A DNA stretch of 64,000 bases, from positions 2,265 through 66,264 of the IMG/VR virus record IMGVR_UViG_3300033075_001514. One strand, written 5' to 3'. This document shows, one piece after another, positions 7,373 through 45,144 of this stretch. The notes beneath the pieces are model-generated. The model worked only from the letters and a program-made list of their open reading frames with translations, was not told where the DNA came from and made no database searches. The DNA is from a virus (lineage: Duplodnaviria; Caudoviricetes). Position numbers and translations under genes: made by a program. Within the stretch, counting starts at the first letter, position 1. Every line of letters begins with the position of its first letter.

Positions 7373-7895
7373 CGCACTGCGGTTAGACCTTAAGAATTGC
7401 GCAAATTGCCGGTCCGAGTTCGAGCCCGACACAAATAAGCGGAAGCTTTGCGTAAGCTGTCGTAGCCAGCGTAGTCAGAATTACTACCAGCGCAACAAAG
7501 AGCAAATCAAAGCCAAAGTTTTGGCACGGTACTACAAAAACTACGACAAGATCCGGGCTGACCAGGCCGAATATCGCGAGAAGACCGGGTACAATTCTAA
7601 GTACTATGCCGAAAACAAAGAGCATCTTAGAAGTCAAGCGCAAGCCGCCCATCGTGCTAATCCTGGAAAGAAGTATGGACTCTCTAAAGATGAATATTGG
7701 GCTATGGTCGATCGTCAAGCGGGACTCTGTGCAATTTGCAACGTCGTCATGGAAAGAGTCTGCGTAGACCACAACCACGCCACCAAGCAAGTTCGCGGAC
7801 TTTTGTGCCATCACTGTAATGTGACACTGGGACTCATGAAGGAGGACCCAGAGCGTCTCGAACGCGCGGCGGAATACATCAGGAGCCACGTATGA
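7365..7895 (+). CDS. endonuclease VII-like HNH homing endonuclease
   Basis: CAICN..VDHNHATKQVRGLLCHHCNVTLG. Confidence 0.85.
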   Translation: MSDALRLDLKNCANCRSEFEPDTNKRKLCVSCRSQRSQNYYQRNKEQIKAKVLARYYKNYDKIRADQAEYREKTGYNSKYYAENKEHLRSQAQAAHRANPGKKYGLSKDEYWAMVDRQAGLCAICNVVMERVCVDHNHATKQVRGLLCHHCNVTLGLMKEDPERLERAAEYIRSHV

Positions 7896-10816
7896 AACTC
7901 GGCAAGTCCCAAAGAGACAAGTCGGATGTCGAGGTAGCGTCAATCGCCGTCGTCAGAGACGGGGCGCTGCTTTGGATTCGTCGTGCCGACAACGCCCTTT
8001 GGACCCTGCCAGGTGGCCATCTAAACCCGGGCGAGGAGCCCCTGGACGGGGCGCTACGCGAACTTCGTGAAGAGACCGGCCTTACCCCGCCCGAAAGCGA
8101 CTTCGAGTTCCTGGGCGACGATTTGGTGCCCGGCAAGGCCCACCTCAGGATTTACTGCTTCGTGGTCGAAGTGCCACCTGACACGAAGGTCGATTTGTCC
8201 CAGGACCCTGACCAAGAGGCCTCTGGGTACGAGTGGAAGGACGAACTGCCCGAGTCCGACCACTGCTACGTCCCCCACGCTGACAACGTCATGCTCAAGT
8301 TCTTGCTCGAAAACGACGAGCTTTCCAAGGCCGAACAAAAGGAATGGCGAGCCAAGGACGGCCTCAAAATCCCTCACCACACAACTCCGGCCAGGGCTGA
8401 GTGGGACAAGGCCTACCACAAAAAGCTCGTGGAGTTCTTCGGTGCTGGTGACTCACAGCGCTTGAAGCCCGTCAAAATCCCCATCACGCCTCAAACGAGC
8501 GGCACAAATCCGGTAGTCAGCAAGGCCAGGTTTTCGCTCTACACGCGCATGTTGGCAGGTGGCGATAGGCTCCCGCCCGCAGTCGTCCGTAGGAATGGCA
8601 TTGGCTGGCACGTAGTCGACGGCAATCACCGCCTCGAAGCGGCCCTCAAGCGCGGCCTCAAGGAGATGGACGCCTACGAACTGGTCGATCCTCCCAAGAA
8701 GACCAAGAAGTCTGAAGAGCCTCTCAACAAAGGCGAGTTCAGAGCAGCCGCCTTTAAGCATAAGGACGGAACTGTCGTTGAGACTGGTTCCCACCACAAT
8801 ATCGAGCCCTGGCTGCAGGGCGGCTCGATGAACCACCGAACTGACGGACCGTGGAATTCTTCTGACTGGGAGGCCGGTTTCGTGACACACAACGGGGCCT
8901 TCATGAACAGGGATGAGGCCGCAAAGCACGTTGGACTTCAGGCCTGGAGTCCCGTGACCGGCAAGCCGCGCAACCTGGATTCCCAAGACCCCGAGGCTGG
9001 GCTTAAGAAGGCTGAAGACGACCTCGTTGCTGCCACCACCGAAAGCCTGGATAACTCCCTCCGCAAGCCACAGTACCGCTCAAGCCCCAACCCTCTCGCA
9101 GGTCACTGCTACGTGGCCTCAGAAGCGCTTTGGCACATGATGGGTGGCCATGAATCTGGCTGGGTGCCTCAGAATGTCAAGCACGAAGGCGACCAGCACT
9201 GGTATTTGAGGCACTCCAAGACTGGGCAGATCCTCGACCCAACTGCAAGCCAGTTCAGGACTCCAGTGCCCTACCACCAAGGTCGCGGTCGTGGTTTCTT
9301 GACCAAGCAGCCCTCGAAGCGCGCACAAGAGGTCATTAATCGAGTCCAGGCCAAGCTCGGTAAGGCCGAAGACCTGACCAAAGCCGGGAACCCCGTGACC
9401 GTTTACCGCCTGCAAAACAGGCGCGGCGAGGGCCCTTACGACGCTCTCGGCGGCGAGTACATGGACACTCACTTTCCCGACGCCGACGATGTCAGTCCCG
9501 AAGACGATTTCGAAAGCCACCAACTCGACGCACTCCACCGAAGCTTTCCGGCACCGAAGTTCGCCTTCGCTCATCCTGACCACGCACAAAAATGGTTCGG
9601 TACCAAAGGGCTCTCCAAGCTGAAGGCCTTGGGTTTCGAACTCTCGCCTATTCAGGCCTCCAAGGTCGAGTACTCAAGGTCCGGCAAGCAAGTCATTTTC
9701 CACCCAGCCAACCTGACCAAAGGGTTGTTCTCGACAGCCGCCCTGACAGGTGCAATGGCTCTCGGCCAGGTCGGTGGTGCGGAGCCAGACCCGAAGCCAG
9801 CCAAGGCCCTCATCGAAGCCACGCAACGAGCAGGCATCGCTGCAGAGCCCGTGAAGTGGTCAGCCCTCGGCCTCCACCAGGCCCTGATTCCCATCGCGCA
9901 CCTCGAATCCAGCTTCGGCCAGAACATCAATCACGCTCCAAACCCCAAAGGCGATTACCACACAGCCTACGGAGCACTGGGATTCAAGCCTGTGACTGCC
10001 CACGAAGAATACCTCAGGGCACCAGTCCTTCAAAAACTCTACGGCGACATGAAGGACCCTGCGGTATTCCTCAACAAATTCAAGACCGACCCCAAGTTCT
10101 ACAACTTGCTCGCAACCAGTCATTTCATGCGCTTGCAAAAGCAGCACGGCTCACCAGAACGCGCGGCCTACGCTTGGCGATGGGGCACGGGCGCTTGCCA
10201 GGGTGCGTCAGACGAACAGGTTGCAACCGAGCCCTACGTCATGAGATACCGCAGCCTCGCAGCCAATGCGGGACTCAAGAAAATGGCCATCAAGGACATC
10301 AAGCCCGGTACGCCCATTGACGAAACGACCTACGACTACACACACCTGATTAAGTCACCAGCGTTGCGTCGGAATTACGCCATGCACGTCACCCACGACC
10401 CATCAGCAGGCCAAAAGCCTACAGACCCAAACGCCCGTGAACCGCGCTCGATTGCCCGCGTGACTATTAAGCACAAGCAATCAGGCCAACTCGTTGGGTA
10501 CGTTGACGGGTCCTGGGACCGAACTGAAGCGGGCCACAAAGCCATTTTGCCGACGTATTCAGTCCTTCGCGACAAGGCTCTGAGGGGTAAGGGTCTGGGC
10601 AAGGCCATGTACGAGGCTCTGTACGCCCATGCCAACAACCACCTCGGCATTAAACATGCAGTTGGTGAAGAACACTCGACCTCTGCATCACGAGTCCACC
10701 AGGCCCTGGCCGAGAAGCATGGCTGGGAGTACCAACCCCAATGGGGCGCAAGGGACCAGACCGTCTCGCGCGACTTCGATGGCGCCTTTGGCCCCTACGA
10801 GTACAAACTCACCTGA
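7892..10816 (+). CDS. 974-aa multi-module protein: NUDIX, ParB-like, unknown, papain-like, ART-like?, transglycosylase-like, GNAT
   Basis: GGHLNPGEEPLDGALRELREETG; VVDGNHRLEAA; GHCY..HW..DPT; LESSFG..AAYAWRWG; LRGKGLGKAMY. Confidence 0.75.
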   Translation: MKLGKSQRDKSDVEVASIAVVRDGALLWIRRADNALWTLPGGHLNPGEEPLDGALRELREETGLTPPESDFEFLGDDLVPGKAHLRIYCFVVEVPPDTKVDLSQDPDQEASGYEWKDELPESDHCYVPHADNVMLKFLLENDELSKAEQKEWRAKDGLKIPHHTTPARAEWDKAYHKKLVEFFGAGDSQRLKPVKIPITPQTSGTNPVVSKARFSLYTRMLAGGDRLPPAVVRRNGIGWHVVDGNHRLEAALKRGLKEMDAYELVDPPKKTKKSEEPLNKGEFRAAAFKHKDGTVVETGSHHNIEPWLQGGSMNHRTDGPWNSSDWEAGFVTHNGAFMNRDEAAKHVGLQAWSPVTGKPRNLDSQDPEAGLKKAEDDLVAATTESLDNSLRKPQYRSSPNPLAGHCYVASEALWHMMGGHESGWVPQNVKHEGDQHWYLRHSKTGQILDPTASQFRTPVPYHQGRGRGFLTKQPSKRAQEVINRVQAKLGKAEDLTKAGNPVTVYRLQNRRGEGPYDALGGEYMDTHFPDADDVSPEDDFESHQLDALHRSFPAPKFAFAHPDHAQKWFGTKGLSKLKALGFELSPIQASKVEYSRSGKQVIFHPANLTKGLFSTAALTGAMALGQVGGAEPDPKPAKALIEATQRAGIAAEPVKWSALGLHQALIPIAHLESSFGQNINHAPNPKGDYHTAYGALGFKPVTAHEEYLRAPVLQKLYGDMKDPAVFLNKFKTDPKFYNLLATSHFMRLQKQHGSPERAAYAWRWGTGACQGASDEQVATEPYVMRYRSLAANAGLKKMAIKDIKPGTPIDETTYDYTHLIKSPALRRNYAMHVTHDPSAGQKPTDPNAREPRSIARVTIKHKQSGQLVGYVDGSWDRTEAGHKAILPTYSVLRDKALRGKGLGKAMYEALYAHANNHLGIKHAVGEEHSTSASRVHQALAEKHGWEYQPQWGARDQTVSRDFDGAFGPYEYKLT

Positions 10817-11220
10817 GTCAAGCTGATCTGAACTCCAATAGTCTGGATTTCGGGGTCGGCATTACGACCCGTATGGACGCCGACCATCCTGATTTCACAA
10901 GACTTGATGATGCCGACCTCTCGGTCACGCTCCATGAGTACCGTGTCGGGGTCTACCCAGCGCTCAAGTACTACACCACCCGCACCAGGATACAAATACC
11001 AGAGCATGTCGGCGTTCTTGAAAGGACGAATAGTGGCGTACACACCGCTTTCGGTCTTTTCGAGAATTGCCCAACCCATCCAGTCGGAAATGTCTTCGCT
11101 GTAGTTAAATGCGACAGGTACTTCGCCGATACGAACAGACATGCCAGCGGGGTCGAAGACGTCTCCCCTAGCTCCCATAGCGTCGGACTCGCCGTCGAAG
11201 TTCAGGATTTTGACTCTCAT
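10795..11220 (-). CDS. hypothetical protein, weak resemblance to HK97-type prohead protease fold
   Basis: D..GDVFDPAG..VPVAFNY..MG..GVYA..EIRMVGV pattern; catalytic His/Ser not evident. Confidence 0.45.
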   Translation of the reverse strand: MRVKILNFDGESDAMGARGDVFDPAGMSVRIGEVPVAFNYSEDISDWMGWAILEKTESGVYATIRPFKNADMLWYLYPGAGGVVLERWVDPDTVLMERDREVGIIKSCEIRMVGVHTGRNADPEIQTIGVQISLTQVSLYS

Positions 11221-11402
11221 GAGACCCTCGTAATCTAACCAGTTGAATTCAGGTCAATGGAGATTTCCCGACGGCTTAAACCACCACTTTACGGCCCCAC
11301 CGTGCCTATCGAGCCTAGCCGCAGTTTTTCCCGCGTTCGCCGTGAGCGCTATTGTTGTGTCTGGGCCTCGGCCAACCATCTTGCGCGCATCTCCAGGGCA
11401 CC

Positions 11403-11960
11403 TTACGTGAACAGCCCGTAGCCTGCGCCATCAGTGATGCCGCTGTACCCGAACAGCTTTTCAGTGGCCTCTTTGGAAAACACCAACGATGAATCCCCTT
11501 GCTGGCAGAACCAGAGGATATACAGAGCAAGCTCTTCCGTGTCAACCTGGGGGTACTTGAGGAGTTCTTCCCAGGTCTCGTCGGGGAGTTCCTTCTCACG
11601 GCGAGCACGCTCGACGGGCTCGTTGAAACCGTGCAGCATGTCGTATCCCGAGTCCAAAATCTCGAAATAGGCCAGGGGAGTCAAGCTGCGGTCCTCGTAG
11701 TCCTCGAAAATCGCCGTGGGGTGGGTCTCTCGGGGGAACTTCTTGCAGGCGTTTTTGAAGGCTGCGGCCACGTCCTTCATTGGCTTGTTACAGCCGAACA
11801 CGAAGTCTTTGGTCTTCCCGTGTCCGTCCGACGACCAGTCGCCCAGGTTGACCGTGAAGCGGTGCGGCAAGGACCCGCTCTTGGCGAATGCCCCCTTGAC
11901 GGTCTCGGTGTTGGCCTTCGTGGCTGACTCTTCAGAGGTGGGACGGGTGCGTGTTTTCAT
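11403..11960 (-). CDS. hypothetical protein
   Basis: 185-aa ORF coupled to upstream gene. Confidence 0.7.
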   Translation of the reverse strand: MKTRTRPTSEESATKANTETVKGAFAKSGSLPHRFTVNLGDWSSDGHGKTKDFVFGCNKPMKDVAAAFKNACKKFPRETHPTAIFEDYEDRSLTPLAYFEILDSGYDMLHGFNEPVERARREKELPDETWEELLKYPQVDTEELALYILWFCQQGDSSLVFSKEATEKLFGYSGITDGAGYGLFT

Positions 11961-12301
11961 TGGTTCGCTTTCTTGTACTTCTGGCCGGTGACGAATTTGG
12001 GCTCACCGAAGGTCAGGGCGATGGACTCTTGCTCGAAGCGGTGGGCGATGACTTCCAGGTCCTGCTCCATGTTGCGGGCGTTCATCGCACCGACTGGTGA
12101 AGACCCACCATGCAATGCACCAATGACGGTGAAGGACTCTTCCTGCACGTCGATGTAGACGGCCTGGCCGCAGCCCTGGAAGAAAACGGCACCGCCGTAC
12201 AGTCGTGCCACTTCCAGGACCTCTTGCTGGCAAGCTTGCCAGCGGCTGATGTCCATGGGGTTCGAACCGATGTTGCGACCGACCGAGATGATGAAGTTCA
12301 T
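11957..12301 (-). CDS. early hypothetical protein
   Basis: ATG 6 nt after TATACC -10 box. Confidence 0.7.
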   Translation of the reverse strand: MNFIISVGRNIGSNPMDISRWQACQQEVLEVARLYGGAVFFQGCGQAVYIDVQEESFTVIGALHGGSSPVGAMNARNMEQDLEVIAHRFEQESIALTFGEPKFVTGQKYKKANQ

Positions 12302-12307
12302 GGGTGG

Positions 12308-12337
12308 GGTATACCATTTAGTTGCTACGGGTGTCAA
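12308..12337 (-). promoter_or_regulatory. early promoter, conserved spacer copy 2
   Basis: TTGACA-cccgTAGCAACTAAATGG-TATACC. Confidence 0.75.
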
Positions 12338-12370
12338 GTAAACAAAGCCTCGACCTTTTGAAGGCCGCTC

Positions 12371-12730
12371 TCACATGCAAGCGCCGCACACGGGTCGCCC
12401 GTCATCGCGCTCGAACCCCGCAGGCATGTGCTTGCAGGTGCCACAGACCGGCGCGTCGTTGACGGCGTACGACTTGGCGGTGGGCTGCGAGTGCATGAAC
12501 GCGTAGGGCGAGCAGACCGACGGCGTCCAGAGCCAGTGCTTGGTGTTAATGAACCCGCCCGAACGGAGGTGCTTGGCGATTTCGTCGGCCTTGCGCTGGG
12601 CATTGGCCTTGTGGGTGTACTGAGCGGCGTGGGTCACAGCCTCAATCATGTCCTCGCAGGGCTCACGGAGATACGCCACGACCACGAACTTACCGTTCTT
12701 CATCGTCTGGACCGTCGTTGAGTAGGGCAT
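12371..12730 (-). CDS. early hypothetical protein with C-terminal CxxC..CxxC
   Basis: ATG 6 nt after TATAAG. Confidence 0.7.
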   Translation of the reverse strand: MPYSTTVQTMKNGKFVVVAYLREPCEDMIEAVTHAAQYTHKANAQRKADEIAKHLRSGGFINTKHWLWTPSVCSPYAFMHSQPTAKSYAVNDAPVCGTCKHMPAGFERDDGRPVCGACM

Positions 12731-12736
12731 GAACGA

Positions 12737-12766
12737 CTTATACCATTTAGTTGCTAGGACTGTCAA
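12737..12766 (-). promoter_or_regulatory. early promoter, conserved spacer copy 3
   Basis: TTGACA-gtccTAGCAACTAAATGG-TATAAG. Confidence 0.75.
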
Positions 12767-12968
12767 GGGGCTTCAGGCCTTTTGCTTTGGCTGAATACCA
12801 GCGATGGTAGTACTCATTCTGAAGACGTCGATGCTGCTCCTGGAGCCGAGGGTCTGCACGCCGTCGTGCCGTGAGGTAGCTCGCCCATGCGGCACGGCAC
12901 GCCGAACACCGGCATTGTAGGTTGTTGTAGCCGTTGGCCGTACCGTGTCGGGGGTCGTTCGGTTTCAT
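12747..12968 (-). CDS. small Zn-binding-like protein (HGT..GY..CRCxxCR)
   Basis: MKPNDPRHGTANGYNNLQCRCSACRAA motif. Confidence 0.6.
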   Translation of the reverse strand: MKPNDPRHGTANGYNNLQCRCSACRAAWASYLTARRRADPRLQEQHRRLQNEYYHRWYSAKAKGLKPLDSPSN

Positions 12969-12993
12969 GGGCTTTCGAACGGGGCTTGGCACC

Positions 12994-13332
12994 TTACTGG
13001 GGCGTGGGGAGATACAGCAACACGATGCTCTTGAATTCCTCATCGCACTTGTGCTTCTTGACGAGTGCCTTGATTTCTTCCAGAAGGTCCTTCTTGTCGG
13101 CCATTTCTTGCTCGTAGCGCATCGTCTGAGTGCATCGCCCCTCGACCTCGATGCGCTCAAAATTCGGCGACCACTGCTCGGCATAGCCGCAGCCAAACTT
13201 GCGGGTTTCCCAGGTCTGGCCGTTACAGTGACGATTGATTTGGCCCTTGAAGCCGACTGTGACCGAGTCCGAGACTGCATCTGCTCCACAAAACGGGCAA
13301 ACCCGGTTTTTGATGTACTTGAAGGGCTCCAT
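12994..13332 (-). CDS. early hypothetical protein, Cys-containing
   Basis: Preceded by TTGACG-N17-TATACC-N6-ATG. Confidence 0.7.
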   Translation of the reverse strand: MEPFKYIKNRVCPFCGADAVSDSVTVGFKGQINRHCNGQTWETRKFGCGYAEQWSPNFERIEVEGRCTQTMRYEQEMADKKDLLEEIKALVKKHKCDEEFKSIVLLYLPTPQ

Positions 13333-13338: not shown

Positions 13339-13367
13339 GGTATATCACACCGTAATCTAAACGTCAA
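13339..13367. promoter_or_regulatory. overlapping divergent early (-) and late (+) promoters
   Basis: Minus TTGACG 13362-13367 and TATACC 13339-13344; plus GTAATCT 13352-13358 lies inside the spacer. Confidence 0.7.
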
Positions 13368-15670
13368 TGGAAGCTGACGGCCTAGAACATCTGCTTGGTG
13401 TAGACGACCCGGTTGAGCGCAGGCTCGCCCTCAAGTCGCACCACGTTGAGCCCTATCACCTGAGAATCGCTCTGCAAGACGAGGATCCACAGGTCCGTGA
13501 AGCTGCAGCCAATCACCCCGAACTCACCCCCGAACTGATGCACGAACTCATCCACGGGGATGACCGATGGCTCGCTGCTCAAATCGTCCAAAGGCCTGAT
13601 ATCACTGATGAACAGCTTGAGCACGCGATGCAGCACGATGACTTGCACCATCACGTCGTGGCCCACAAGGCCCTGACAGAAGACCAGCGCAACAGGCTGG
13701 CTGACGATGCAACGGTTGCTGAAGGCCTGAAGGATGACCTGGCCAAGTCCGACCTCATCAAGAACATTGGGCATTTGTTGTACCCGCACTTCGGTGAAGC
13801 CAAGCTCCACCAACTCGGCGCGTACTTCCCAGAGAAGAACCGCCGCAAGAACGATTTCCGCACCACCAAGTCGAAGACCTCAGTGTCCCAGACCGGCGGA
13901 TATACTGACTACGGCGCCTTCAAGGACAAGGCCTTGCCTGAGAACCGCCGCAGGATGAAAATCCGTGTGAAGTGGCGCAAAGACCCACCGACCGAGGTCG
14001 ACGAGGGTGTCCGCAACCGCATGTTCGGGGATGCCGACAATAACGACGTGGGTCACCTCGCTGACCAGTTCAGGGCCGTTCGCCAGGTTGTCGGCTCTAA
14101 ATCCGACCATGCAAACGAGCAGCACGAACTCCAGCACGGAGTCTTTGGACGCTTGGCCCAGAAGTATGGCATGAAGTCCAGGGACGCCATCATCCATGAG
14201 ACCCTGGCAAGGCTCCCAGACGAGCACCGTGCTGCTCTGAAGGGCGTTTTCTCCCATGGCCCCAGGATGAGCTATCACCCTTCACAGTGGCCTGAAGAGA
14301 CCATTGCGTTCGCTCAGAACTATTTGATGGACCCGGTCTATCGACGCAAAATCCACGTTGCTCAGCGAATCGACCGCAACACCGAAGCGCAGCACGACCA
14401 GGTCAAGAAGGTCCGCAAGGCCTGGAACGAACTTCAGCGCATTGCCCAGAACCTCAAGCCAGAAGACCTGGGCTTGGTCCACAAAACCGAAGACCAAGTC
14501 CTGCTCGAAGCCGTTGAGACCCTGACCAAGGCTCGTGGGGCCGACAGCGACAGTATCGTCGACCACCTCGGCTTTGACGAGCGTCGACACGCCATCCTCG
14601 AAGCCATTGAATTCTTGACCGGTAAGCCGGTTGACCCAGACGCGTATCGAGCCAGACTCATGGACTGTGACGACGACATCGAAGCGGCCTTGTTGGCAAG
14701 CGGCCTGACCCTTGAAGACCGCTCAAAGCTCGAAGCCGTGCTGTCGCTTGGTGGTGAACTGTCCAAGGCCGAGCCCAAGCTCCCCAAGCAGGTTCTGCCA
14801 GCCAACCACTCTGCAGCCGAGATGGCCTCTGACTTGCAGTGGGCTATTGACAACAACCAAATCGAGACTGTTCACCTCGGTGGCAAGCACTCTGCTGGCA
14901 CCTTGATGGCCCGCAATGACGATGGTGATTTGTTCCTGCTCAAGCCAGGCTCTGGCAAGCAATCCCCCGCTGCAGGGGCAGCAGAAGACAAGGCCTCCCA
15001 GTCTCGTCGTGAAGCAGCATTTTCTGCCGTGGCTCGCCAGATGCATATCCCCCAGGTCCCCCAGGTCGAACTCGTCCTGGTTGACGGCAAAGAGGTCGCT
15101 GGCATTCGAATGCTGGGCCTTGATTGGACAGGCCTTGCCCGTGCGAGGGAAAAAGACTCGCAGGTTCCCCGCAGAGTGCTGAAGCAGCACCTTGACGATG
15201 GCTCGATTTTCAAGTGGGCCATCATGGACGGAATACTCGCGAACCCAGACCGTCATGGTAACAACCTCATGATTGGTCCTGAGGGTAAAGTTGCGTTGAT
15301 TGACCACGGCTCCGCTTTCGCAGGACCTTCGTTTGACCCAGGTCACGACTCGAAGTCTTTCGTTCCGTACTACCTGAGGATTTGGGGACCTGAAAAGGGT
15401 TGGTCGAAGCTCTCGCCCGAAGAGCGTCTCCGTGTCCTTCCGGTTCTTGGCGAAGAAGCGGACAACGAAATCAGAGAATGGGTTGAAAACCTCGATGTCG
15501 CTGCTCTGGCGGATACGATGTACCGCTACGGCATCGACCCTGGGCCAAGTCTCGAAAGATTCCAAGCCCTGCGGGGTTACATGGATACTACACCTGATAA
15601 GGTCTCGGAAATCATGAACAAGATGTGGATTGGATTGCTGCCGTGGAGAGGTTTCAAGCCACAGCGGTAA
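13367..15670 (+). CDS. 767-aa multi-module protein: HEAT/LRV-like repeats, unknown modules, C-terminal PI3/PI4-kinase/HipA-like kinase
   Basis: LFLLKP..REAA..LANPDRHGNNLMI..LIDHGSAF; N-terminal DEDPQVREAAANHP repeats. Confidence 0.75.
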   Translation: MEADGLEHLLGVDDPVERRLALKSHHVEPYHLRIALQDEDPQVREAAANHPELTPELMHELIHGDDRWLAAQIVQRPDITDEQLEHAMQHDDLHHHVVAHKALTEDQRNRLADDATVAEGLKDDLAKSDLIKNIGHLLYPHFGEAKLHQLGAYFPEKNRRKNDFRTTKSKTSVSQTGGYTDYGAFKDKALPENRRRMKIRVKWRKDPPTEVDEGVRNRMFGDADNNDVGHLADQFRAVRQVVGSKSDHANEQHELQHGVFGRLAQKYGMKSRDAIIHETLARLPDEHRAALKGVFSHGPRMSYHPSQWPEETIAFAQNYLMDPVYRRKIHVAQRIDRNTEAQHDQVKKVRKAWNELQRIAQNLKPEDLGLVHKTEDQVLLEAVETLTKARGADSDSIVDHLGFDERRHAILEAIEFLTGKPVDPDAYRARLMDCDDDIEAALLASGLTLEDRSKLEAVLSLGGELSKAEPKLPKQVLPANHSAAEMASDLQWAIDNNQIETVHLGGKHSAGTLMARNDDGDLFLLKPGSGKQSPAAGAAEDKASQSRREAAFSAVARQMHIPQVPQVELVLVDGKEVAGIRMLGLDWTGLARAREKDSQVPRRVLKQHLDDGSIFKWAIMDGILANPDRHGNNLMIGPEGKVALIDHGSAFAGPSFDPGHDSKSFVPYYLRIWGPEKGWSKLSPEERLRVLPVLGEEADNEIREWVENLDVAALADTMYRYGIDPGPSLERFQALRGYMDTTPDKVSEIMNKMWIGLLPWRGFKPQR

Positions 15671-16232: not shown

Positions 16233-17366
16233 GGCCCCATTTCCTCATCGATGTTTTTGAGGACCTGGGTCGGGTTGGCCTTGCCGTTGAGGTATTTCAT
16301 GACATCGGCCAGCACGAGGGACCTGGGCGCAGAGCGCAACCCAGCCCGACTTGCTGTACGGCCCATTACCGCCAGTACGGTCGGTCTCAGGTCATCGTCT
16401 GATGGGTACGCGTGAGGTTCGCTCACGACTTACCCACCATCTTGATGTCCCCTTCCATGGGGTCGAACTCCGGAACGGTGAGGACGGCCTTCTCGCTCAG
16501 AGTCATCGAGCCGCGCCTGAAGACCTTGACCCAGATATCTCCGTGCTCTTCGCCAGTGCCTTCCAGGACGAAGGTCATCTTGGGGAATACCGCTGAAATG
16601 GCGGCCATGTGCTCTTCGTGCTCGTACCACTTCATTTCGTCGCCACCCTTGTCGAAGAGGTACTCCAGGGTCTCGATGATGTCGGAGTCCAAAAGCTCTT
16701 CACAGCGAGCGGTCAGGGCCTTGCAGTCGTCGATGTACTCTTGGCGGTACTTCTTGGCCCCACCGGCTCCCACTTCGGCGTTGACCCGCGAGGCCTCGTC
16801 CAGAGCATTCAAGATGAACCTGGAGCACTCTTCGAACTGGTCTTCGTCTGAAAATGACCGCAGCTTGAATTGAGTGTAGTAACCCATGGTAGTCCTTTAC
16901 TTTTGCTCCAGGTGTTCTCCCCGCTCGTAGCGGAGTGCTGCAGTTTCTGGCCTGATTGCACCGCTTGCACCGCCCGGGTGCCACTTGTGCGTTCGCAGGT
17001 CGGCCACGATTGCGGCACGTTCCAGAAGACGACCTTCTGCAATGCCGCGCCTCACTGCATCGGCAATGCCAGGATCGACCTTCTCGAACTCGGGGCTCAC
17101 TTCCGCTTCCCCTTGGTGATGCTCGCCTTGAGCTTCTCCAGGGCGGCGATTTTGTCGTCGATGTCCCTGATGCGGTCCAGTTCGGCGTGCTTTGCGAGCC
17201 ACTTCTCCAGGTCAGGAGAACGCTGGCCCTTCGGCACCATTGGTCCGAACTGACACAGCAGTCTGGTTGCCTCGTCAGTCCTGACCTTCAGGGCGTCGTA
17301 CTTGCGCTGGACTGCCGCAAGGTCGTCGGTTGTAACGTAGCTGGGACCACCGTCTGTGCATGGCAT
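16229..17366 (-). other. four hypothetical CDS (16229..16426, 16423..16887, 16897..17100, 17097..17366)
   Basis: Coupled minus-strand ORFs. Confidence 0.6.
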
Positions 17367-17368
17367 GT

Positions 17369-18253: not shown

Positions 18254-18570
18254 AGATTCCTCCAGGTATTCGATGGCGCGCTTAAGAACTTCACAGTCGT
18301 CTTGAAAGTTACCCAATGCGGTGTTGCATGCGTGACACAGCAAACCTCGCACTTTGCCAGTCTCGTGGTCGTGGTCGACATGAAGTCTGTTCCATCGATC
18401 GCGCGGCAACCTACCACAAATTTTACAAAGGCCCGATTGTGCTGCTACCATATTTTGGTAGGCCTCAATCGTAATTCCGTATCGGCCAAGCATATACTTG
18501 AACCGGACCTTTTCGCGGTTTTCTGGCTTTTCCCGCCATCGTTTTTCAGCCGCTCTGGCTCTTCCCGATG
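18254..18570 (-). CDS. endonuclease VII-like HNH domain reading in frame into the RNA ligase
   Basis: YGIT..CKICG..LHVDHDHETGKVRGLLCHACNTALG; no stop before ligase; start uncertain (ATG 18493 possible). Confidence 0.7.
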
Positions 18571-19378: not shown

Positions 19379-19385
19379 GGCGACC

Positions 19386-19414
19386 GTTATACACTAAATC
19401 GAGGAGGACTGCAA
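19386..19414 (-). promoter_or_regulatory. early promoter
   Basis: TTGCAG-N17-TATAAC-N7-ATG. Confidence 0.65.
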
Positions 19415-21051: not shown

Positions 21052-21061
21052 TCTTACAGCC

Positions 21062-30770: not shown

Positions 30771-30799
30771 GTTATACAGTAAACCCAGCCAGATGTCAA
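30771..30799 (-). promoter_or_regulatory. early promoter
   Basis: TTGACA-N17-TATAAC; leadered, with GGAG SD before ATG 30740. Confidence 0.7.
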
Positions 30800-30802
30800 G
30801 AC

Positions 30803-32160: not shown

Positions 32161-32199
32161 TGCATATCAGATGGACAGCGGCCCGTCAAGGCGTAATCT
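32161..32199. promoter_or_regulatory. back-to-back early (-) and late (+) promoters
   Basis: Minus -10 32161-32166 and -35 32184-32189; GTAATCT 32193-32199. Confidence 0.7.
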
Positions 32200-38169: not shown

Positions 38170-41100
38170 ATGTCTCTCCTACTCGCCCTAACGGGCTCAG
38201 GGCTCAACGCCCTTCGCTTCAACGCAGCCGCTGATACGTTCACGATGCCGTCCGCTGCCGTCCCCTCGGGGTCCGGCGCCTGGACCGTTGCAACTTGGGT
38301 TCGGCTCGTCAATGACCGCAATGATGTAACGACTATTTGGTCGCTCGACGGCCTTTTTTCGTCGTCATGGCATTCGCTCCAGTGTGACTCGTCTGGCACG
38401 AGCCTTCGCCTCTATGAGACGGGCACGACTGTAACAACCATCGCCACGCTGACCGTCGGTACTTGGTACTACGTCGTCGTTCGTAAGAGCGCTGGCGGCA
38501 CCATCAAGACGTACATCGGTGACGAAGCCGGTGGTGCGTTGACGACCGGTTCAGGTAGCGTCACCAACATTACATATTCCGGCGACGGGTATGTCGGCGG
38601 AAATGCATACAGCGAATTCCTCGACGGCCGCATGTGGGGTATGCGTGTCTGGGACGCCGAATTGTCCGACGCTGAAGTTGACGCGGAATTCACTGCCAGC
38701 ACCGCTGCCAGAACAAGTAACCTCCGCGCACAGTGGCTTCTCGACAATCTCACCGTACCTGGCGACGATACATCTGGCAACAATCGAGACCTCACCAATG
38801 CCGGTGGCTCGTGGACCCTTGAAGCTGGTCCGGTACTGCCCGCAGCACCGGCTTCGTTTACCGGTACGCTGGCCAGGACTCTTGCCAACGACACTCTTGC
38901 CGCGTCCGGAACGCTTGACTCGACTGGTTCTCTCGCAAGAACTCTTGCTGATGTGACACTCAGTGCCGCCGGAACGCTTGTTTATTCTGGTACCCTTGCA
39001 AGGACTCTCGCAGACGCGACCCTCAGCGCCTCCGGTGCACTGACTTTCTCGGGTACGCTCGCAAGAACTCTTGCAGATGCAACGCTCGCTGCGTCCGGAA
39101 CGCTCGAATACTCAGGAACCGTTGCTCGGACTCTCGGTGACGTAACCTCGACAGCCAGTGGCTTGTTTAGCGCTCCGATTACCGGGACACTTGCAAGAAC
39201 TCTTGCGGATGACACCCTCAGTGCGTCCGGCACACTGGTCTATTCAGGTACCCTTGCTCAGACACTGGCCGACGCTACACTCGTCGCATCTGGCGCCCTG
39301 GTCTATTCAGGCACCCTCGCAAGGACTCTCGCTGACGCTACGCTCGCTGCGTCCGGAAATCTGGCCTACTCGGGTACTCTGGCCCGTACACTGAGTGATG
39401 CAACGCTCGCTGCGAGCGGCTTGTTCAGTGCCCCGATTACCGGTACGCTGGCCAGGACTCTTGCCAACGACACTCTCGCCGCATCTGGCACCCTGGACTC
39501 TTCAGGCTCGCTTGCAAGAACCCTTGCTGATGCAACGCTGAGTGCTTCTGGAGCCCTGGTCTATTCAGGTACGCTGGCTCGTACACTTGCAGATGCAACC
39601 CTCAGTGCATCTGGCACGCTGATTTACTCGGGTACGCTGGCAAGAACCCTTGTTGACGCAACCCTCAGTTCGTCCGGTACCGTCATCAATCCGGTCACTG
39701 GTACCCTTGCACGCACGCTCGCGAACGCGACACTCGTAGCGAGCGGAACGCTTGACTCGACTGGCTCGCTGGCCAGGACGCTTGCCAACGCGACTCTCAG
39801 TGCATCGGGTGCATTGGTCTATTCAGGTACCGTCGCAAGGACCCTCGCCAACGCAACGCTCAACGCGTCAGGTACGCTTGACTCGACCGGTACCCTGGCC
39901 CGTACTCTCGCGGATGCGACACTTAATGCGGCAGGAACTCTCGATTCGACCGGCAGCCTTGCTCGCACCCTTAGCAACGCGACGCTTAACGCGAGCGGCA
40001 TCTCGATTGACCCCATCACCGGCTCGCTCGCCAGGACGCTTGCTGGCGACACCCTCAGTGGCGTTGGGTTCTTCGGCCAGGGCTACAATGGTACACTCAA
40101 TGTAACACTCGGAGGAGTTCAGTCCTTTACTACGGGCGACAGCTTGGAGCCATACCGGCCCTTTAGCTCAGTTCAGGCCTTTATCCAACCCATGAATATT
40201 CCAACAGACGTAAGTAACACGATTGTCCTGGGTATCCACCAGTCCGACGTCATCATCCGCAGTGCCATCATCACGGCTCTGGCCGACATGCGTGCCAACC
40301 CTTGGGTCCTCGACCGCGTATTTGCATCGCTCGTTCAGGACTCTCTGACCGCCAAGGACAAGGGGCAACGCGAACTCCAGGCCGCCAAGAATTGGTTCCT
40401 CCGCACGAACATCCCCGTCCTGGTCACCCCGGTCATGGACGAATTCAAGACGCCGTGCATCAGCATCACACTCGTTGACTCGTCGGAAGTCCCCAGCGAA
40501 GCCACGACGTCGGACACCCACTACGAGCCCTTCGAGTACGACGACTCGACCTCGCCTGCACTCACCACCGGATTTACTCCACAGTCCTACAACCCGCTGA
40601 CCGGCGAAATCACCCTCGCACCCGATGCTCTGCCTCCTGGCGTGTACGTCGGTCCTGGCATGTTGATTGTCGACAAATACGGCACTGCGCACGAAATCCT
40701 GCGCATGGGCGATTCGACCGACCAGTTCTACATTGCCGCGAACGTCCAGGCCAACTTCAACGGCGCCGTGCTCAAGGGCATCAGGCCCTCCATCATCACG
40801 TCGGTCGAGTCAAGCTCGTTCAAGGAGACCTACCGTATCGGCCTCCACGTCGGCGCAGAGCCCGCGTACCTCATTTGGCTGCACTCCATCGTTGTGTTCG
40901 CGCTGCTGCGCTACAAGGAAGTCCTGCTTGAAGGTCGAGGCTTCGAGCGCAGCACCTTCAGCAGCAACGACCTCAGCCGCGACACCGTCTTCGAGACCGA
41001 GAATATCTTTACTCGCTACTTGACCATCAGCGGTCACGTGCGCCAGTACTGGCCCAAGATTGTGTCGCGTCCCATCGACGTTGTCCAGGGCGAGTTCCGC

Positions 41101-41208
41101 GTCAGCGGCGAAGATGCCGACGTACGGCTTGCGGACACGGGCGAAGACCCGAACGAGGCATTGTGGATGGGCAACCTCGATTCGATTGACGCCTCAAAAC
41201 GTAAGTGA
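38170..41208 (+). CDS. LamG-like domain + about 19 tandem repeats + C-terminal tail-terminator-like domain
   Basis: WTVATWVR..GTWYYVVV..LDGRMWGMRVWDAELSDAEV; repeats; globular C-terminus in the position preceding the sheath. Confidence 0.65.
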   Translation: MSLLLALTGSGLNALRFNAAADTFTMPSAAVPSGSGAWTVATWVRLVNDRNDVTTIWSLDGLFSSSWHSLQCDSSGTSLRLYETGTTVTTIATLTVGTWYYVVVRKSAGGTIKTYIGDEAGGALTTGSGSVTNITYSGDGYVGGNAYSEFLDGRMWGMRVWDAELSDAEVDAEFTASTAARTSNLRAQWLLDNLTVPGDDTSGNNRDLTNAGGSWTLEAGPVLPAAPASFTGTLARTLANDTLAASGTLDSTGSLARTLADVTLSAAGTLVYSGTLARTLADATLSASGALTFSGTLARTLADATLAASGTLEYSGTVARTLGDVTSTASGLFSAPITGTLARTLADDTLSASGTLVYSGTLAQTLADATLVASGALVYSGTLARTLADATLAASGNLAYSGTLARTLSDATLAASGLFSAPITGTLARTLANDTLAASGTLDSSGSLARTLADATLSASGALVYSGTLARTLADATLSASGTLIYSGTLARTLVDATLSSSGTVINPVTGTLARTLANATLVASGTLDSTGSLARTLANATLSASGALVYSGTVARTLANATLNASGTLDSTGTLARTLADATLNAAGTLDSTGSLARTLSNATLNASGISIDPITGSLARTLAGDTLSGVGFFGQGYNGTLNVTLGGVQSFTTGDSLEPYRPFSSVQAFIQPMNIPTDVSNTIVLGIHQSDVIIRSAIITALADMRANPWVLDRVFASLVQDSLTAKDKGQRELQAAKNWFLRTNIPVLVTPVMDEFKTPCISITLVDSSEVPSEATTSDTHYEPFEYDDSTSPALTTGFTPQSYNPLTGEITLAPDALPPGVYVGPGMLIVDKYGTAHEILRMGDSTDQFYIAANVQANFNGAVLKGIRPSIITSVESSSFKETYRIGLHVGAEPAYLIWLHSIVVFALLRYKEVLLEGRGFERSTFSSNDLSRDTVFETENIFTRYLTISGHVRQYWPKIVSRPIDVVQGEFRVSGEDADVRLADTGEDPNEALWMGNLDSIDASKRK
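38860..40110 (+). repeat. coding tandem repeat, 21-23 aa unit (GTLARTLADATLSASGTLVYS)
   Basis: 19 clear units plus 1 degenerate; longer ..PI/PV units at positions 5, 9, 13, 18. Confidence 0.9.
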
Positions 41209-41226
41209 ACCGGTAATCTCTAAGTC

Positions 41227-44200
41227 ATGGCAATTCCAGGTCACCTGCGCAACCACCCCCTATTTTCCGGCGGCCGGTTTGGTCTCATGAGCGGCGAAAG
41301 CCCCAGGTTTCCTGCTACCCAAAAGCCAACCCACGAGAACCTGGTCAATCATCTGAGGAATCAAGGGATTGGGTTCGAAGAGACCCACGGTCGCTACGAC
41401 GACCCAGAACGCTCAGTCATTATTCACTCGCCTACCCGCGAGATGATGGCTGACCTCGGCAAGCACTTCGGCCAAGAGTCCGTGGTGTTCTCTGACAAGG
41501 GCAAGCACGAATTGCTCTACACCAACGGCGAGCACGAAGGCAAGTCGCGCCTGACGAAGCCTGGCTCTGAACCCATCGATTGGTTCCACGAAGCTCCGTC
41601 GAATTACTACACGCACCTGCCCAACCACGGTTATTTCGGAATCAACTTCGACTTCGATTCGGACCCCCAGCACCACGGCCCGGTCCAAGCCGCTCCTTCA
41701 GCGCCTGCGCCGATGACGAAGCACGACTTCAAGGAAGCGGCGTTCTTGCACTCTCCTACGGGTCAGGTTGTCGCGACGGGACACCGCCACGACCTTGAGC
41801 ACCCTTCGATGGACCTCAAGGCCTTCAATCGCGGCGAGTACGTCGATGGTTTTGTTGACTCGAAGGGCAAGTTCTTTGACCGCAACCAGGCTCTCGCAGT
41901 CATTCGGCGCGAAGGTATGCCCGACCCCGTGTTGCCAAGCGGCGAGGTCGAGGTCCATTCAGACGACCTGGACATGCCATATAAGGTACACGGTGGACTC
42001 AACAAGGCTGGTCAGCCCTCGGATATCCTCCAGGTGCTGGCTGATGAACTTGAGATGCAGGGCTGGTCACCGAACGAAATTCCCCAGGCTACGGGGGTCG
42101 GTGCCATTGATTCGGATCGGTCCAAGTTGGCCGGTCACCGTGGCGCCGATTGGGCTACGGCGATTTCTCAGAGAACGAATCGCCACGCCGACAACCTTGA
42201 GGCCTTGGCCCAAGAGCGTGGACATACACACGGCAACACTTCACTGGAACGTGACCAACTTGGCAGAACGGCCGAACAACAAGCAATGCACGACATCGCA
42301 TTGGCCGACAAGAGCCGTGACTCCGGCGATGCAAATTACGTTGGGGACAATCCGTTCCACCACAACAATCTTCCCGGCGTGTTGGACGCCGACAACTTCG
42401 GCAAGGACTTGACCGACAGGTCAGGTAAAGTCCCCGTCCCCTTTTCTGCAAGTCCTACCGAAGCTGCTACGTCTGTCGCTGGCAACATGCCGACGGGTAA
42501 CGAGATGCGCGCCGCATGGAAGTCTCACCCCCATGCGTACGAATGGCACGACGGCCACTCAGACCACCACCGACTCGCACCCAACCTGGAAGCGATCCAG
42601 AAGTCCTTCGGGCTCTGGAAGGCAGATCTACCCAAGAACGACCAGGCCGCTGGCGTTGGCGCACCGACGTATGCCAAGTTCGCTGGTCCATACGGTGAAG
42701 TCCGTGGTCGTGCTACGCCCAGTGACCTGACGCACTATAACTACCACGGGAAGCTCCCCGAAATCGAAGCTCTCGTCAAAAAGCACGGATTCAAGACCTA
42801 CTTCGCTGGCGGTAAATACGGCAAGCCCGACCTCCAGGCCAAGAACTACAACAACGGCCACTTGATGATTTACGACCCGACTCCTTCGTCGGGCGGCGAC
42901 TTCAAGGACCACCAGTACACGAACGCGTGGCGTCAAATCCACGAGCTTTCGCACGCACTCACTTACCCCGAACTGAACTCCATTTACGGCGAAGGTCGTC
43001 GAATCGGCAAGCTCGGTACTCACCGTACCCCGAACGAAGCCATGCGCGCCGTACATTGGGAATGGCTCGCAGCCCACAAGCAGCGCGACTTGAGCGCCAA
43101 GCTCGGCATTCACGTGCCCGACGAGGTGTTCCACAAGGAACTCAACACCGTCATGCACGACGCTGTACGCCGTGCTGTGACTGGCCAGTTCACTGAGCCT
43201 GCGGGCGAGGGTTTTGTACCCCACAGCCACAAGGTCCCCCTCCACATCGCCCTCGACACCGTTCGCAACGAAGCACAGGCCATGGGCATCCAGCACCCCC
43301 ACGGGCTCGCGAAGCGTCCGATGATGAAGGCCTGGCCTGCAGGCGCTACTGAGACCCAGGATTCGCCTGAGAACCAAGCCAACGCAGCAGCGCACAAAAC
43401 CATCACTGAACGCGCCGAGGTATTTGGTGACAAGCAGGAAGAGCAGGGCTTGCCTCGTACGGGCGTTCACCCGAATGCGCTTTCGAGTATTCGAAGTAGA
43501 GCCCAAATTGGCGGCTCGCAAGACCAGCAACTTGGGCGTATTAGTACGGCTCGCCACACGAACGACATTGCAAGGTTCAATGCTGGCTGGCCTGGTTCAG
43601 ACCCAGTGATGCCAGCAAAGGCCTACATCGACGGTGGCGGCTATGACGAAGCGCCGTACGACAGCAAGGGCGACTTGAACGACCAAAACTACTGGGCCGG
43701 AATCGGTCGTGCCGCTGGTATTCAGAAGTCTGACCCCGGCGCTCCGCTTCACGCTGATGCCAATACATTCCTTGCCGCTCTGAAGGGTCTACCCAAGGGC
43801 TCGCCTGAACGCGGTAAATTCGTCACGCAGCACATGAACCACGGTCCGTTCTTGGCCGCTCTCCAGGCTCATCCTCAAGGCGTCCAAATCCACAAAATGC
43901 TCACCGGGTTCTTGAACTCGAAGGCAAACGCCGGTCCTGGTCTGCCAATGAAGACCGTCGCAAAATCAGAGCCTCACGTAATCTTGTCGAAGCAAGGGAA
44001 CACCATGTCCGAAAAGACCTACACACCACAAGAAGCCGTCGAAGTACTCAAGAAGGCGGCCTCTGACAAAATCAAGGCCATGGAGTATCGGCTTCAGGAC
44101 CTCCGCAAGCGTGAGCTTTCGAAGGGGTTGATTCCAACTCACAAGCACAACACCGGCTCGTCGGCCAGTGCTGCGATGGAAGACGTCCCGCCCTCGAAGC

Positions 44201-45144
44201 TAAATGCTCCCGGCAAGGACGACAAGCTCATCGGTGGCACTGCGACCCAAAAGGGCGAAGAGTCGTCGACTGAAGACTCGTCGCACGGTCCCGAAGAGAC
44301 CTCGGGCGAAATCAGCGCTGCTGATATGGCCAAGGCTCTGCTTTGCAAGAAGTGCGGCAAGACCCACGACCTTGAAAAGGCGTGCGATGGCATGGACAAG
44401 GCTGAACTGGTCGACGCCAAGGGCAACACCGAGTCCAACTCGGAAGAGTCCGCAGCCACGATGCCTGACGATGCCGTCAAGCACGTCAACAAGCCCACCA
44501 AGTCGAAGCCTGGCTCGGGTGGTGTAATCACCAAAGGCAAGAAGCTCGGTAAGTCGCTCGGTGAAATCCGCTCGCTTGCTAAGGCAATGGCCCCTCCGAC
44601 CGCCAAGCCGCCAAGCGGCACCAACATGGCGACCAAGGTCCCCACGAGCGCTCCCAAGGCTCCTGCCATCGCCAAGGCTGTCGACAAAATCGTCGTCCCC
44701 AAGTCCCAGAAGCCCAAGGTCCCCAGCAACGAGCGCGACCACACTGTCCAAGTCAGCAAGGACAAGACGGTGTATGAGGCCAAGAAGCCTGAGCTTGAAA
44801 AGGGCGTGATGTCTGACATCGCGGCCAAGAACAACGCAGGTGCTCCTACTACTGGCGCGACGATGGTCGGCGGGTCGAGTGACCCCTCGAAGGTCAAGCT
44901 CCCAACCCCTGGCCAGCAAGAAAAGCGCGCGAACATGTTCGGCGCTGCAATGGCCGGTGAATATCAGCCGCCAGGAACTCAGCCCACCGCCAAGCTCGCC
45001 GCACCGGCCAAGCCCGCAACCGCGCTCGCTTCGCCCAAGGCTGCAGGTATTGCTGCAAAGCCAGCCGTTTCTGCAAGTCCAGTCATGAATGCTGCACGTC
45101 CTTCCAAGCCCGGGATTTTTGCCCGGCTCATGTCTAAAAAGTAA
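41227..45144 (+). CDS. 1305-aa multi-module protein incl. HExxH module and Ala/Lys/Pro-rich C-terminus
   Basis: GTAATCT 7 nt upstream; IHELSHAL; about 14 hydrophobic-x-K-[ASG] motifs. Confidence 0.7.
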   Translation: MAIPGHLRNHPLFSGGRFGLMSGESPRFPATQKPTHENLVNHLRNQGIGFEETHGRYDDPERSVIIHSPTREMMADLGKHFGQESVVFSDKGKHELLYTNGEHEGKSRLTKPGSEPIDWFHEAPSNYYTHLPNHGYFGINFDFDSDPQHHGPVQAAPSAPAPMTKHDFKEAAFLHSPTGQVVATGHRHDLEHPSMDLKAFNRGEYVDGFVDSKGKFFDRNQALAVIRREGMPDPVLPSGEVEVHSDDLDMPYKVHGGLNKAGQPSDILQVLADELEMQGWSPNEIPQATGVGAIDSDRSKLAGHRGADWATAISQRTNRHADNLEALAQERGHTHGNTSLERDQLGRTAEQQAMHDIALADKSRDSGDANYVGDNPFHHNNLPGVLDADNFGKDLTDRSGKVPVPFSASPTEAATSVAGNMPTGNEMRAAWKSHPHAYEWHDGHSDHHRLAPNLEAIQKSFGLWKADLPKNDQAAGVGAPTYAKFAGPYGEVRGRATPSDLTHYNYHGKLPEIEALVKKHGFKTYFAGGKYGKPDLQAKNYNNGHLMIYDPTPSSGGDFKDHQYTNAWRQIHELSHALTYPELNSIYGEGRRIGKLGTHRTPNEAMRAVHWEWLAAHKQRDLSAKLGIHVPDEVFHKELNTVMHDAVRRAVTGQFTEPAGEGFVPHSHKVPLHIALDTVRNEAQAMGIQHPHGLAKRPMMKAWPAGATETQDSPENQANAAAHKTITERAEVFGDKQEEQGLPRTGVHPNALSSIRSRAQIGGSQDQQLGRISTARHTNDIARFNAGWPGSDPVMPAKAYIDGGGYDEAPYDSKGDLNDQNYWAGIGRAAGIQKSDPGAPLHADANTFLAALKGLPKGSPERGKFVTQHMNHGPFLAALQAHPQGVQIHKMLTGFLNSKANAGPGLPMKTVAKSEPHVILSKQGNTMSEKTYTPQEAVEVLKKAASDKIKAMEYRLQDLRKRELSKGLIPTHKHNTGSSASAAMEDVPPSKLNAPGKDDKLIGGTATQKGEESSTEDSSHGPEETSGEISAADMAKALLCKKCGKTHDLEKACDGMDKAELVDAKGNTESNSEESAATMPDDAVKHVNKPTKSKPGSGGVITKGKKLGKSLGEIRSLAKAMAPPTAKPPSGTNMATKVPTSAPKAPAIAKAVDKIVVPKSQKPKVPSNERDHTVQVSKDKTVYEAKKPELEKGVMSDIAAKNNAGAPTTGATMVGGSSDPSKVKLPTPGQQEKRANMFGAAMAGEYQPPGTQPTAKLAAPAKPATALASPKAAGIAAKPAVSASPVMNAARPSKPGIFARLMSKK

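Follow-up and report, generated by a model that had tools for sequence, protein, structure and literature searches.

In herpesviruses, the UL26 protein begins with an assemblin domain, is cut at a self-cleaved release site, and has a C-terminal part that is kept in the procapsid; in phage T4, the injected enzyme Alt is matured by prohead-protease cleavage. Prohead proteases of the assemblin fold cut capsid, portal, scaffold or inner-body, and ejected proteins at a three-residue motif, which is L/I-x-E for T4 gp21 and S/A/G-x-E (AXE) for phiKZ gp175 and SPN3US gp245, and in phiKZ and 201phi2-1 the cleaved head proteins number 19 (PMC10052503, PMC5694885). Polyvalent proteins were defined by Iyer, Burroughs, Anand, de Souza and Aravind in 2017 as polypeptides with 2–15 unrelated effector domains, drawn from a repertoire that includes NUDIX, ParB-like, GNAT, ART-PolyVal and zincin-like peptidase domains, encoded beside virion genes, and predicted to be packaged and injected (PMC5512222). 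The present study concerns five late proteins of a tailed phage from soil, encoded in a stretch of 64,000 nucleotides (the window, positions 2,265 to 66,264 of IMG/VR record IMGVR_UViG_3300033075_001514), and a short motif, [LMIV]-x-K-[ASG], that recurs where their unrelated modules meet. Both polyvalent proteins and the processing of many head proteins by prohead proteases with three-residue recognition motifs were known already. What is new is that the linkers between modules of polyvalent proteins carry a site of the capsid-maturation kind with Lys at P1 (the residue before the predicted cut), that modules are portable together with their sites, and that the putative protease is itself fused to cargo; a literature search found no paper describing capsid-type sites in such linkers. 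Since the joints carry the capsid-trimming signal of related phages, the capsid-maturation protease probably cuts the polyvalent proteins as well.

The window makes up nearly the whole of a 66,264-bp viral contig with a CheckV completeness of about 41%, and represents the late region of an incomplete Mx1-like myophage genome. Myxococcus phage Mx1 (169.6 kb) was the sole relative in the isolated-phage records searched, its tail sheath protein sharing 43% identity, and IMG/VR contributed 21 related loci, including the complete genome G001 (164,871 bp, with terminal repeats) and the genomes G002 and G003 (80–84% completeness). The relatives have genomes of about 165–180 kb with 55–58% GC, and the only cultured one, Mx1, infects Myxococcus.

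The sequence-only reading had picked out four large proteins and a smaller one as strings of unrelated modules, and in this it was right: the open reading frames (ORFs) are as it gave them, the modules are recognised by Pfam and PHROG, and every motif it listed is at its coordinate. It missed that the class is known as polyvalent proteins (PMC5512222), and that a module with an HExxH motif could be a rival processing protease. The 974-aa protein (7892–10816, plus strand) comprises NUDIX (aa 16–115), ParB-like (about aa 147–280), unknown (281–373), YunG-like/phrog_12251 (374–491) and phrog_1106-like (498–610) modules, a module with a hydrophobic N-terminus (611–797) and a GNAT domain (798–974). 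By Pfam, the 767-aa protein (13367–15670, plus strand) has a HEAT/LRV-like N-terminus and a C-terminal PI3/4-kinase/HipA-like domain, and the 855-aa protein (32207–34774, plus strand) has an mCpol-like domain (aa 13–123), DUF5661 (567–608); the latter protein also holds two modules marked by the pattern 'A[LW]PRNE.EN.AN'. The 319-aa protein (21062–22021, plus strand) ends in a Cys-rich module. The 1305-aa protein (41227–45144, plus strand) was dissected by tblastn against 12 relatives as well as by Pfam, and has a SAM-lyase-like domain (aa 31–104), the HExxH module (466–700), a further module of the AWP type (702–826) and a Lys/Ala/Pro-rich tail (about aa 1030–1305); its aa 170–428 are an inserted region present in the window only.

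These proteins are module-shuffled polyvalent proteins. Four of the chains hold two or more unrelated effector or enzyme domains (NUDIX, YunG-like and GNAT; HEAT and PI3/4-kinase-like; mCpol and DUF5661; SAM-lyase-like and HExxH). A Pfam search of ten inter-site segments recovered the HEAT/LRV and kinase domains and nothing else. Genes for the sheath, a tube-like protein and virion structural proteins flank the polyvalent genes, placing them among virion and late genes. A match to PF18760, 'ADP-ribosyltransferase in polyvalent proteins', in the Mx1 counterpart of the 974-aa protein assigns the window proteins to the class described by Iyer et al. (PMC5512222); other class-typical domains among the homologues are PF18760 in P0040 and P0070, ParB PHROG matches in the G001 homologue, and PF02195 in P0033. 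The likeness to the published class extends to multi-domain chains, highly variable architectures, a virion-gene neighbourhood and, in Mx1, an ART-PolyVal domain.

The motif is strongly enriched in the five proteins, which makes the observation firmer than the sequence-only reading could. Against an expectation of 13.9 ± 3.6 from residue shuffles of each protein, 42 matches were present in the pooled set, a number reached in none of 2000 shuffles, whereas the other 67 called proteins of the window had 38 against 34.7 expected (p 0.30). The 1305-aa protein has 18 matches (4.8 expected), where the sequence-only reading had counted about 14, and the 76 database homologues of the 974-aa protein have 516 (284 expected). 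Chance or composition was considered as an explanation, given a short, degenerate motif and linkers in which Lys, Ala, Ser and Glu abound, and because the five proteins contain 5.5–9% Lys against 1–3% in the tail proteins. The shuffles preserve composition, however, and the control motifs and the Glu preference at P2' described below, the latter independent of how sites were selected, lead to the same result; this explanation was rejected, and its probability is regarded as negligible.

The sites are concentrated at module joints. Breakpoints were defined without reference to the motif, as points where local similarity to relatives begins or ends while both proteins continue, and were scored as coincident with a site lying no more than 10 aa away. 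In the five window proteins, 20 of 40 breakpoints coincide with a site, compared with 8.1 expected (0 of 5000 randomisations). Across the 76 homologues of the 974-aa protein the figure is 262 of 534 (49%), with 72 (13.5%) expected and a distance peak at -5 to +10. Seen from the side of the motif, 60% of sites in these homologues fall at breakpoints (66% for L-x-K-[SAM]), against 9–21% when P1 is R, E, D, G or A or the motif is reversed (six controls) and 22% for Lys in general. An independent, 31-member family around the 855-aa protein gave 56%, against 5–32% for controls and 33% for any Lys. Different codons are used at the sites without restriction, which places the constraint at the protein level, and a DNA-level signal, such as a recombination site or an internal start, was ruled out on the same grounds. 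The motif is real, specific and junctional, and it falls where module order, fusion or fission differs among more than 100 relatives. In the 974-aa protein, seven of nine breakpoints coincide with sites (K146, K280, K373, K497, K610, K797 and K821); the sites of the 767-aa protein are not at shuffling breakpoints.

A stricter count set the ends of high-scoring segment pairs (HSPs) against the HSPs that span each site. In the 974-aa protein (all sites on the plus strand), LNK|G at K280 (8723–8734) has 37 ends and 6 spanning HSPs, and LKK|A at K373 (9002–9013) has 36 and 7, the module that follows it being N-terminal in the Mx1 homologue. The double site LGK|AEDLTK|A at K491 and K497 (9356–9385) has 33 and 32 ends against 4 and 2 spanning. 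LTK|G at K610 (9713–9724) has 30 against 6, and the same module begins with LSK|S in Mx1 and LEK|A in G001. LKK|M at K797 (10274–10285), with 68 ends and 30 spanning, opens the GNAT module, which starts with [LV]KK|[MA] in the window, Mx1 and G001 alike, each time after a different upstream neighbour. The joint between NUDIX and ParB-like modules, LSK|A at K146 (8321–8332), is borderline (32 ends, 37 spanning), with LAK|A in Mx1 and LSK|A in G001.

The sites of the other proteins are likewise all on the plus strand. The 767-aa protein has LAK|S (13739–13750), VHK|T (14477–14488), LTK|A (14522–14533) and LSK|A (14759–14770), which 15 collinear homologues keep within linkers that vary in length. 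In the 319-aa protein, VEK|SE (21827–21838) precedes the Cys-rich module and is homologous to VVK|SE in Mx1 and VGK|SE in G001. The 855-aa protein has VQK|SEDLFK|A (33095–33124), LGK|A (33833–33844), MEK|A (34022–34033) and MSK|A (34541–34552) at its junctions. The 1305-aa protein carries the double site IQK|SFGLWK|A (K459 and K465, 42595–42624) in the linker before the HExxH module and MMK|A (K701, 43321–43332) directly after it, with 15 HSP ends and 2 spanning at the latter; IQK|S (K834, 43720–43731) has 9 and 0, and VAK|S (K913, 43957–43968) has 12 and 2. The linker upstream of the HExxH module cannot be aligned in sequence or length among 11 relatives except for the word hydrophobic-x-K|[AS], which is retained in six of nine aligned relatives; L017 has ALAK|E instead. 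An AlphaFold2 model of aa 428–700 (mean predicted local distance difference test score, pLDDT, 79) shows a confident fold at about aa 472–692, while aa 428–468, which contain IQK|S and LWK|A, score below 50, and MMK|A follows the fold immediately, so that the sites flank a folded module.

Two observations concern recurrent or unusual segments of these proteins. The module matching 'A[LW]P[RA][NG]E.EN.AN' has three copies (33122–33170, 34031–34080 and 43330–43380), of which the 855-aa protein holds two and the 1305-aa protein the third; K|A immediately precedes each of them, and the copies at aa 606–735 and 699–826 of the respective proteins match by BLAST (E 7e-4). The last ~280 aa of the 1305-aa protein (44300–45144, plus strand) are of low complexity, rich in Lys, Ala, Pro and Ser, with about ten sites only a few residues apart, and this tail resembles a scaffold or internal DNA-binding protein meant for shredding.

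A position scan and the breakpoint-associated sites allow the signal to be refined. In the scan, Lys was the most enriched residue at P1 (1.8x), Leu at P3 (2.5x), and Ser (2.9x), Met (2.5x) and Ala (1.75x) at P1'. Among hydrophobic-x-K words at breakpoints, chosen blind to the residues downstream, P1' is A, S, G or M in 64%, Glu at P2' reaches 5.2x expectation, and there is a preference for Pro at P4 and for acidic residues at P5–P6. Together these preferences give a signal of about [E/D]-[E/D]-P-L-x-K|[A/S/G/M/T]-E. Sites are frequently doubled 6–10 aa apart, as in LGKAEDLTKA, VQKSEDLFKA and IQKSFGLWKA.

Modules and sites move together between genes and genomes. The 974-aa protein and the 1479-aa protein of Mx1 have five modules in common but in a different order, and the 76 homologues, of 560–1660 aa and mostly on contigs of 160–180 kb, show many domain combinations. 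In G001, a 1622-aa protein is a fusion of the counterparts of the window's 974-aa and 767-aa proteins, with the internal order again different, and the fusion joint carries LTK|SEQ. Met1 of the 767-aa protein aligns residue for residue with the P1' position after hydrophobic-x-K in seven distinct fused homologues, at joints that include LTK|SEQD, IKK|TEHD, LLK|TEHD and MKK|SEND, and from these alignments the 767-aa gene appears to have been split in evolution exactly at the predicted bond. When all database N-termini were compared with internal sites, 19 exact matches were found among 583 events, of which only the 767-aa case is clean; the comparison is noisy because many ORFs are incomplete. 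The 974-aa protein starts with MKLGK|S (7898–7909, plus strand), where a cut would remove only five residues, and in homologues with an internal NUDIX module, hydrophobic-x-K|[ST]E precedes that module, so the N-terminus of the 974-aa protein looks like a retained site.

A search of the whole 66-kb contig, including the 2.2 kb outside the window, found no gene for capsid, scaffold, portal or protease, so evidence on head maturation must come from relatives. The relatives support the comparison that the sequence-only reading had in mind, with the N-terminus of the mature capsid protein. Capsid proteins of Mx1, G001, G002, G003 and the distant G005 have a variable leader followed by hydrophobic-x-K|[AG]-L-E/T-(A/T)-G. 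A search of 1.8 billion cluster representatives gave 94 full-length homologues down to about 27% identity (95 sequences with the query); the aligned column is Lys in 93 of the 95, the full hydrophobic-x-K-[A/S/T] is present in 92, and the leaders are 6–46 residues long. The family is homologous to Gp6.1 of PDB 9vel (E 1e-23), which we take to be the capsid protein of Bacillus phage SPO1, and to that of 5lii (E 7e-8), presumably the capsid protein of a Twort-like Staphylococcus phage. The 5lii-type protein is deposited both as 463 aa (5lii) and as 439 aa (9row, 9rox, 9roz), and the 439-aa chain begins at Ser25, directly after V-V-K24, where K24 aligns with the Lys of LLK|ALEAG. The capsid precursor Cps of Listeria phage A511 is reportedly matured by cleavage at K/S, and the link to Herelleviridae that the sequence-only reading drew from it holds in the relatives, through the capsid homology and the chain that starts after VVK. 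Judged from these genomes, the head module of the window phage is probably of the SPO1/Twort (Herelleviridae) type. The relatives share with that group a homologous capsid protein and an aligned hydrophobic-x-K|[AS] at the start of the 439-aa chain, and differ in host and genome, and in a protease that carries more than 1000 aa of fused cargo; to our knowledge, polyvalent substrates have not been described in Herelleviridae.

In G001, the motif is in significant excess in proteins that include the scaffold candidate (7 against 1.6 expected), the portal protein (6 against 2.5, with sites in both terminal extensions) and the mCpol protein (5 against 1.6). Two small unannotated proteins are nominally enriched, and the large proteins of the tail, of replication and of other functions have no more matches than expected. 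The gene that lies between those for portal and scaffold in Mx1 and G001 specifies a protein of 1239 or 1282 aa, annotated as a putative prohead protease by the Mx1 authors. Pfam, PHROG and PDB sequence searches of it recognised no peptidase. When its first 320 residues were modelled with AlphaFold (pLDDT 83), aa 1–170 formed a beta-rich domain, for which nearly all of the ~45 best Foldseek matches are herpesvirus assemblins, plus T4 gp21, with probabilities up to 0.99. Across 51 sequences of the domain, Ser124 (in GFSIEGS) is invariant, His45 near-invariant and Lys217 invariant, the last lying in VRK|ALEAGNYN...ALQxED, a copy of the capsid protein's mature N-terminus. The fold match and the invariant Ser in the relatives suggest that the enzyme postulated by the sequence-only reading exists in this phage group, as a predicted assemblin-fold Ser/His prohead protease that heads a polyprotein and has a site of this type after it. 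The head-cluster protein has 111 database homologues, in which the core is conserved while the C-terminal effector varies (PI3/4-kinase, GGDEF, ART-PolyVal, ParB or an intein). G002 and G005, which are more distant, encode the protease domain by itself, as an ORF of 255 or 273 aa. By sequence comparison, one motif is common to the relatives' scaffold, to both ends of their portal protein, to the position of capsid maturation and to the site of protease release. The capsid-like copy (K|ALEAGNYN.APS..TGGAALQ.ED) lies right after the protease domain, at aa 215–245 of L035 (G001:77206–81054, minus strand) and about aa 242–270 of Mx1 L001:13002–16721, and may be a capsid-anchoring or substrate-mimic segment.

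The motif might nonetheless be a linker signal that is never cut, such as a boundary or capping element, or a docking motif for the scaffold or capsid interior that travels with modules, the chains acting intact and full-length like N4 vRNAP or ArdC. Several polyvalent proteins are known as delivered uncleaved (PMC5512222), the motif often falls within the conserved N-terminal edge of a module, as in the [LV]KK|[MA] of GNAT, and the capsid L-x-K-A-L-E-A-G is almost invariant, as would be expected of a structural element. Yet unrelated folds share the same four to six residues at their edges only, the doubling of sites is as in spacer-peptide excision, a separate gene (that for the 767-aa protein) begins exactly at P1', the scaffold, which must leave the head, has seven copies, and a deposited mature chain begins at the corresponding position of a homologous capsid protein. 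We regard this explanation as rather unlikely.

The joints could also be cut by the HExxH module of the 1305-aa protein (42622–43326, plus strand), a possible zincin- or MPTase-like peptidase acting in the head or after injection. Its HExxH sequence (IHELSHAL) has H145, E146 and H149 of the aligned segment invariant or nearly so in 11 sequences, it is the best-conserved module of the 1305-aa protein (45–62% identity), and self-processing by an embedded peptidase has been proposed for polyvalent proteins (PMC5512222). The best VIA-align match is ArdC (6sna), the C-terminal domain of which is the prototype MPTase, with PprI/IrrE also appearing, and a protein atlas gave Peptidase_M78 as a lead. 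These fold matches are weak (Z 4.3 for ArdC, Foldseek E 0.2 or worse), Pfam gave no match to the module and a PDB profile search nothing significant. The module was not found in the complete Mx1 genome or in G002, both of which keep the motif at joints and in the capsid protein, and Mx1 keeps it in the scaffold too. The motif also stands at the capsid N-terminus, where the mature form begins in the Staphylococcus-phage homologue, a member of a group that presumably uses a prohead protease. Processing by the HExxH module is considered improbable, and more so than an uncut linker.

Cleavage by the prohead protease is thus preferred, and the full mechanism, in which the sites are cut in the prohead and the products remain in the head and are injected, is judged from these comparisons to be reasonably probable. 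The polyvalent precursors, consisting of unrelated enzyme modules on short disordered linkers, would be built into the prohead core. An assemblin-fold Ser/His prohead protease would then cut after Lys, removing the capsid leader, shredding the scaffold and freeing itself from its own cargo, and the same cutting would dissect the polyvalent precursors into single-domain proteins. These products would stay in the head, exit with the DNA and act early in the host.

Several points weigh against this. Cleavage, packaging and injection of the window proteins are all deduced, and what is published on Mx1 is a genome announcement. All of the head evidence is borrowed from relatives at 40–60% identity, and a single experimental result anchors it, namely how long a sequence deposited in the PDB is; the conserved capsid word could, as noted, be a structural element. 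Pfam Peptidase_S78 and S77 had no match at E <= 1 in the window genome, Mx1 or three relatives, and Foldseek matched the protease fold at modest E-values (3e-3 to 0.1). Roughly every second breakpoint lacks a motif within 10 aa, and the large polyvalent proteins of G001 are not enriched in total (6 against 4.8; 5 against 3.6), although their joints do carry sites. Finally, VSKA in the ParB module (K211) and LGKA in the GNAT domain (K904) lie inside modules, a caveat already made by the sequence-only reading, and by the strict HSP count LIKS (K821) does likewise.

Compared with T4 and phiKZ, the proposed processing differs in having Lys rather than Glu at P1, in placing sites between the modules of polyproteins rather than only after a propeptide, and in that modules with their sites are shuffled between genes and genomes. 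With sites between enzyme modules, one gene would yield up to about seven products. The relatives' head-cluster protein resembles UL26 in having an N-terminal assemblin-fold domain followed by a release-type site, which is Lys|Ala here and Ala|Ser in herpesviruses, and differs in a C-terminal part composed of a conserved core and variable effectors (kinase, GGDEF, ART, ParB). The 2017 work on polyvalent proteins proposed embedded peptidases and defined no site, whereas here the linker signal is shared with the capsid, scaffold, portal and protease release site, an overlap that favours the prohead protease as the enzyme and allows the products to be predicted exactly.

Polyvalent proteins are regarded as a main route by which phages and plasmids deliver counter-defence enzymes with their DNA. 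The present results offer a residue-level rule, L-x-K|[A/S/G/M/T]-E, a candidate cargo-fused protease of the assemblin fold, a list of predicted products, and a cultivable phage, Mx1 on Myxococcus xanthus. If the mechanism is correct, the motif would let the injected payload of more than 100 uncultured phage genomes be read from sequence, and the free movement of modules between genes would be explained by each module carrying its own release site. It could be speculated, with somewhat less confidence than for the mechanism and with the odds leaning the other way, that a large clade of ~160–180-kb Mx1-like phages, most of them uncultured, uses a plug-and-play payload, in which any module flanked by L-x-K|[A/S]-E can be inserted into any head-targeted polyprotein, including the C-terminal extension of the protease.

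A shared upstream sequence links most of the polyvalent genes to the sheath gene. GTAATCT occurs 20 times in the window, compared with 2.9 expected, almost always on the coding strand (for example at 6100–6106, 13352–13358, 21048–21054, 32193–32199, 41213–41219 and 45816–45822). It lies 7–8 nt before the ATG at 13367, 21062, 32207 and 41227. Ahead of the sheath gene the spacing is about 22 nt, and no such box precedes the 7892 gene. For the 319-aa protein, the box ending 7 nt upstream makes the ATG at 21062 a better start than that of the longest ORF (20954). The common box suggests late co-expression of the four polyvalent genes and the sheath gene, and its placement fits a late promoter with leaderless or near-leaderless mRNAs.

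The late genes on the plus strand are broken up by blocks of small minus-strand genes at 10795–13332, 16423–19825 and 25786–32029, which stretch the distance from thymidylate synthase to sheath to 41 kb, from 18 kb in Mx1. Between the 1305-aa gene and the sheath gene lies a 221-aa ORF (45154–45819, plus strand) with a homing-endonuclease PHROG match (phrog_314, E 1.6e-10) and a low coding score. Just upstream of the 1305-aa gene, 38170–41208 (plus strand) encodes a 1012-aa Lys-poor protein (1.3% Lys) in which the motif is not above chance. Only its last ~330 aa are common to most relatives, whose protein is about 330 aa long, and the ~680 aa before them form an N-terminal extension that L004 alone shares.

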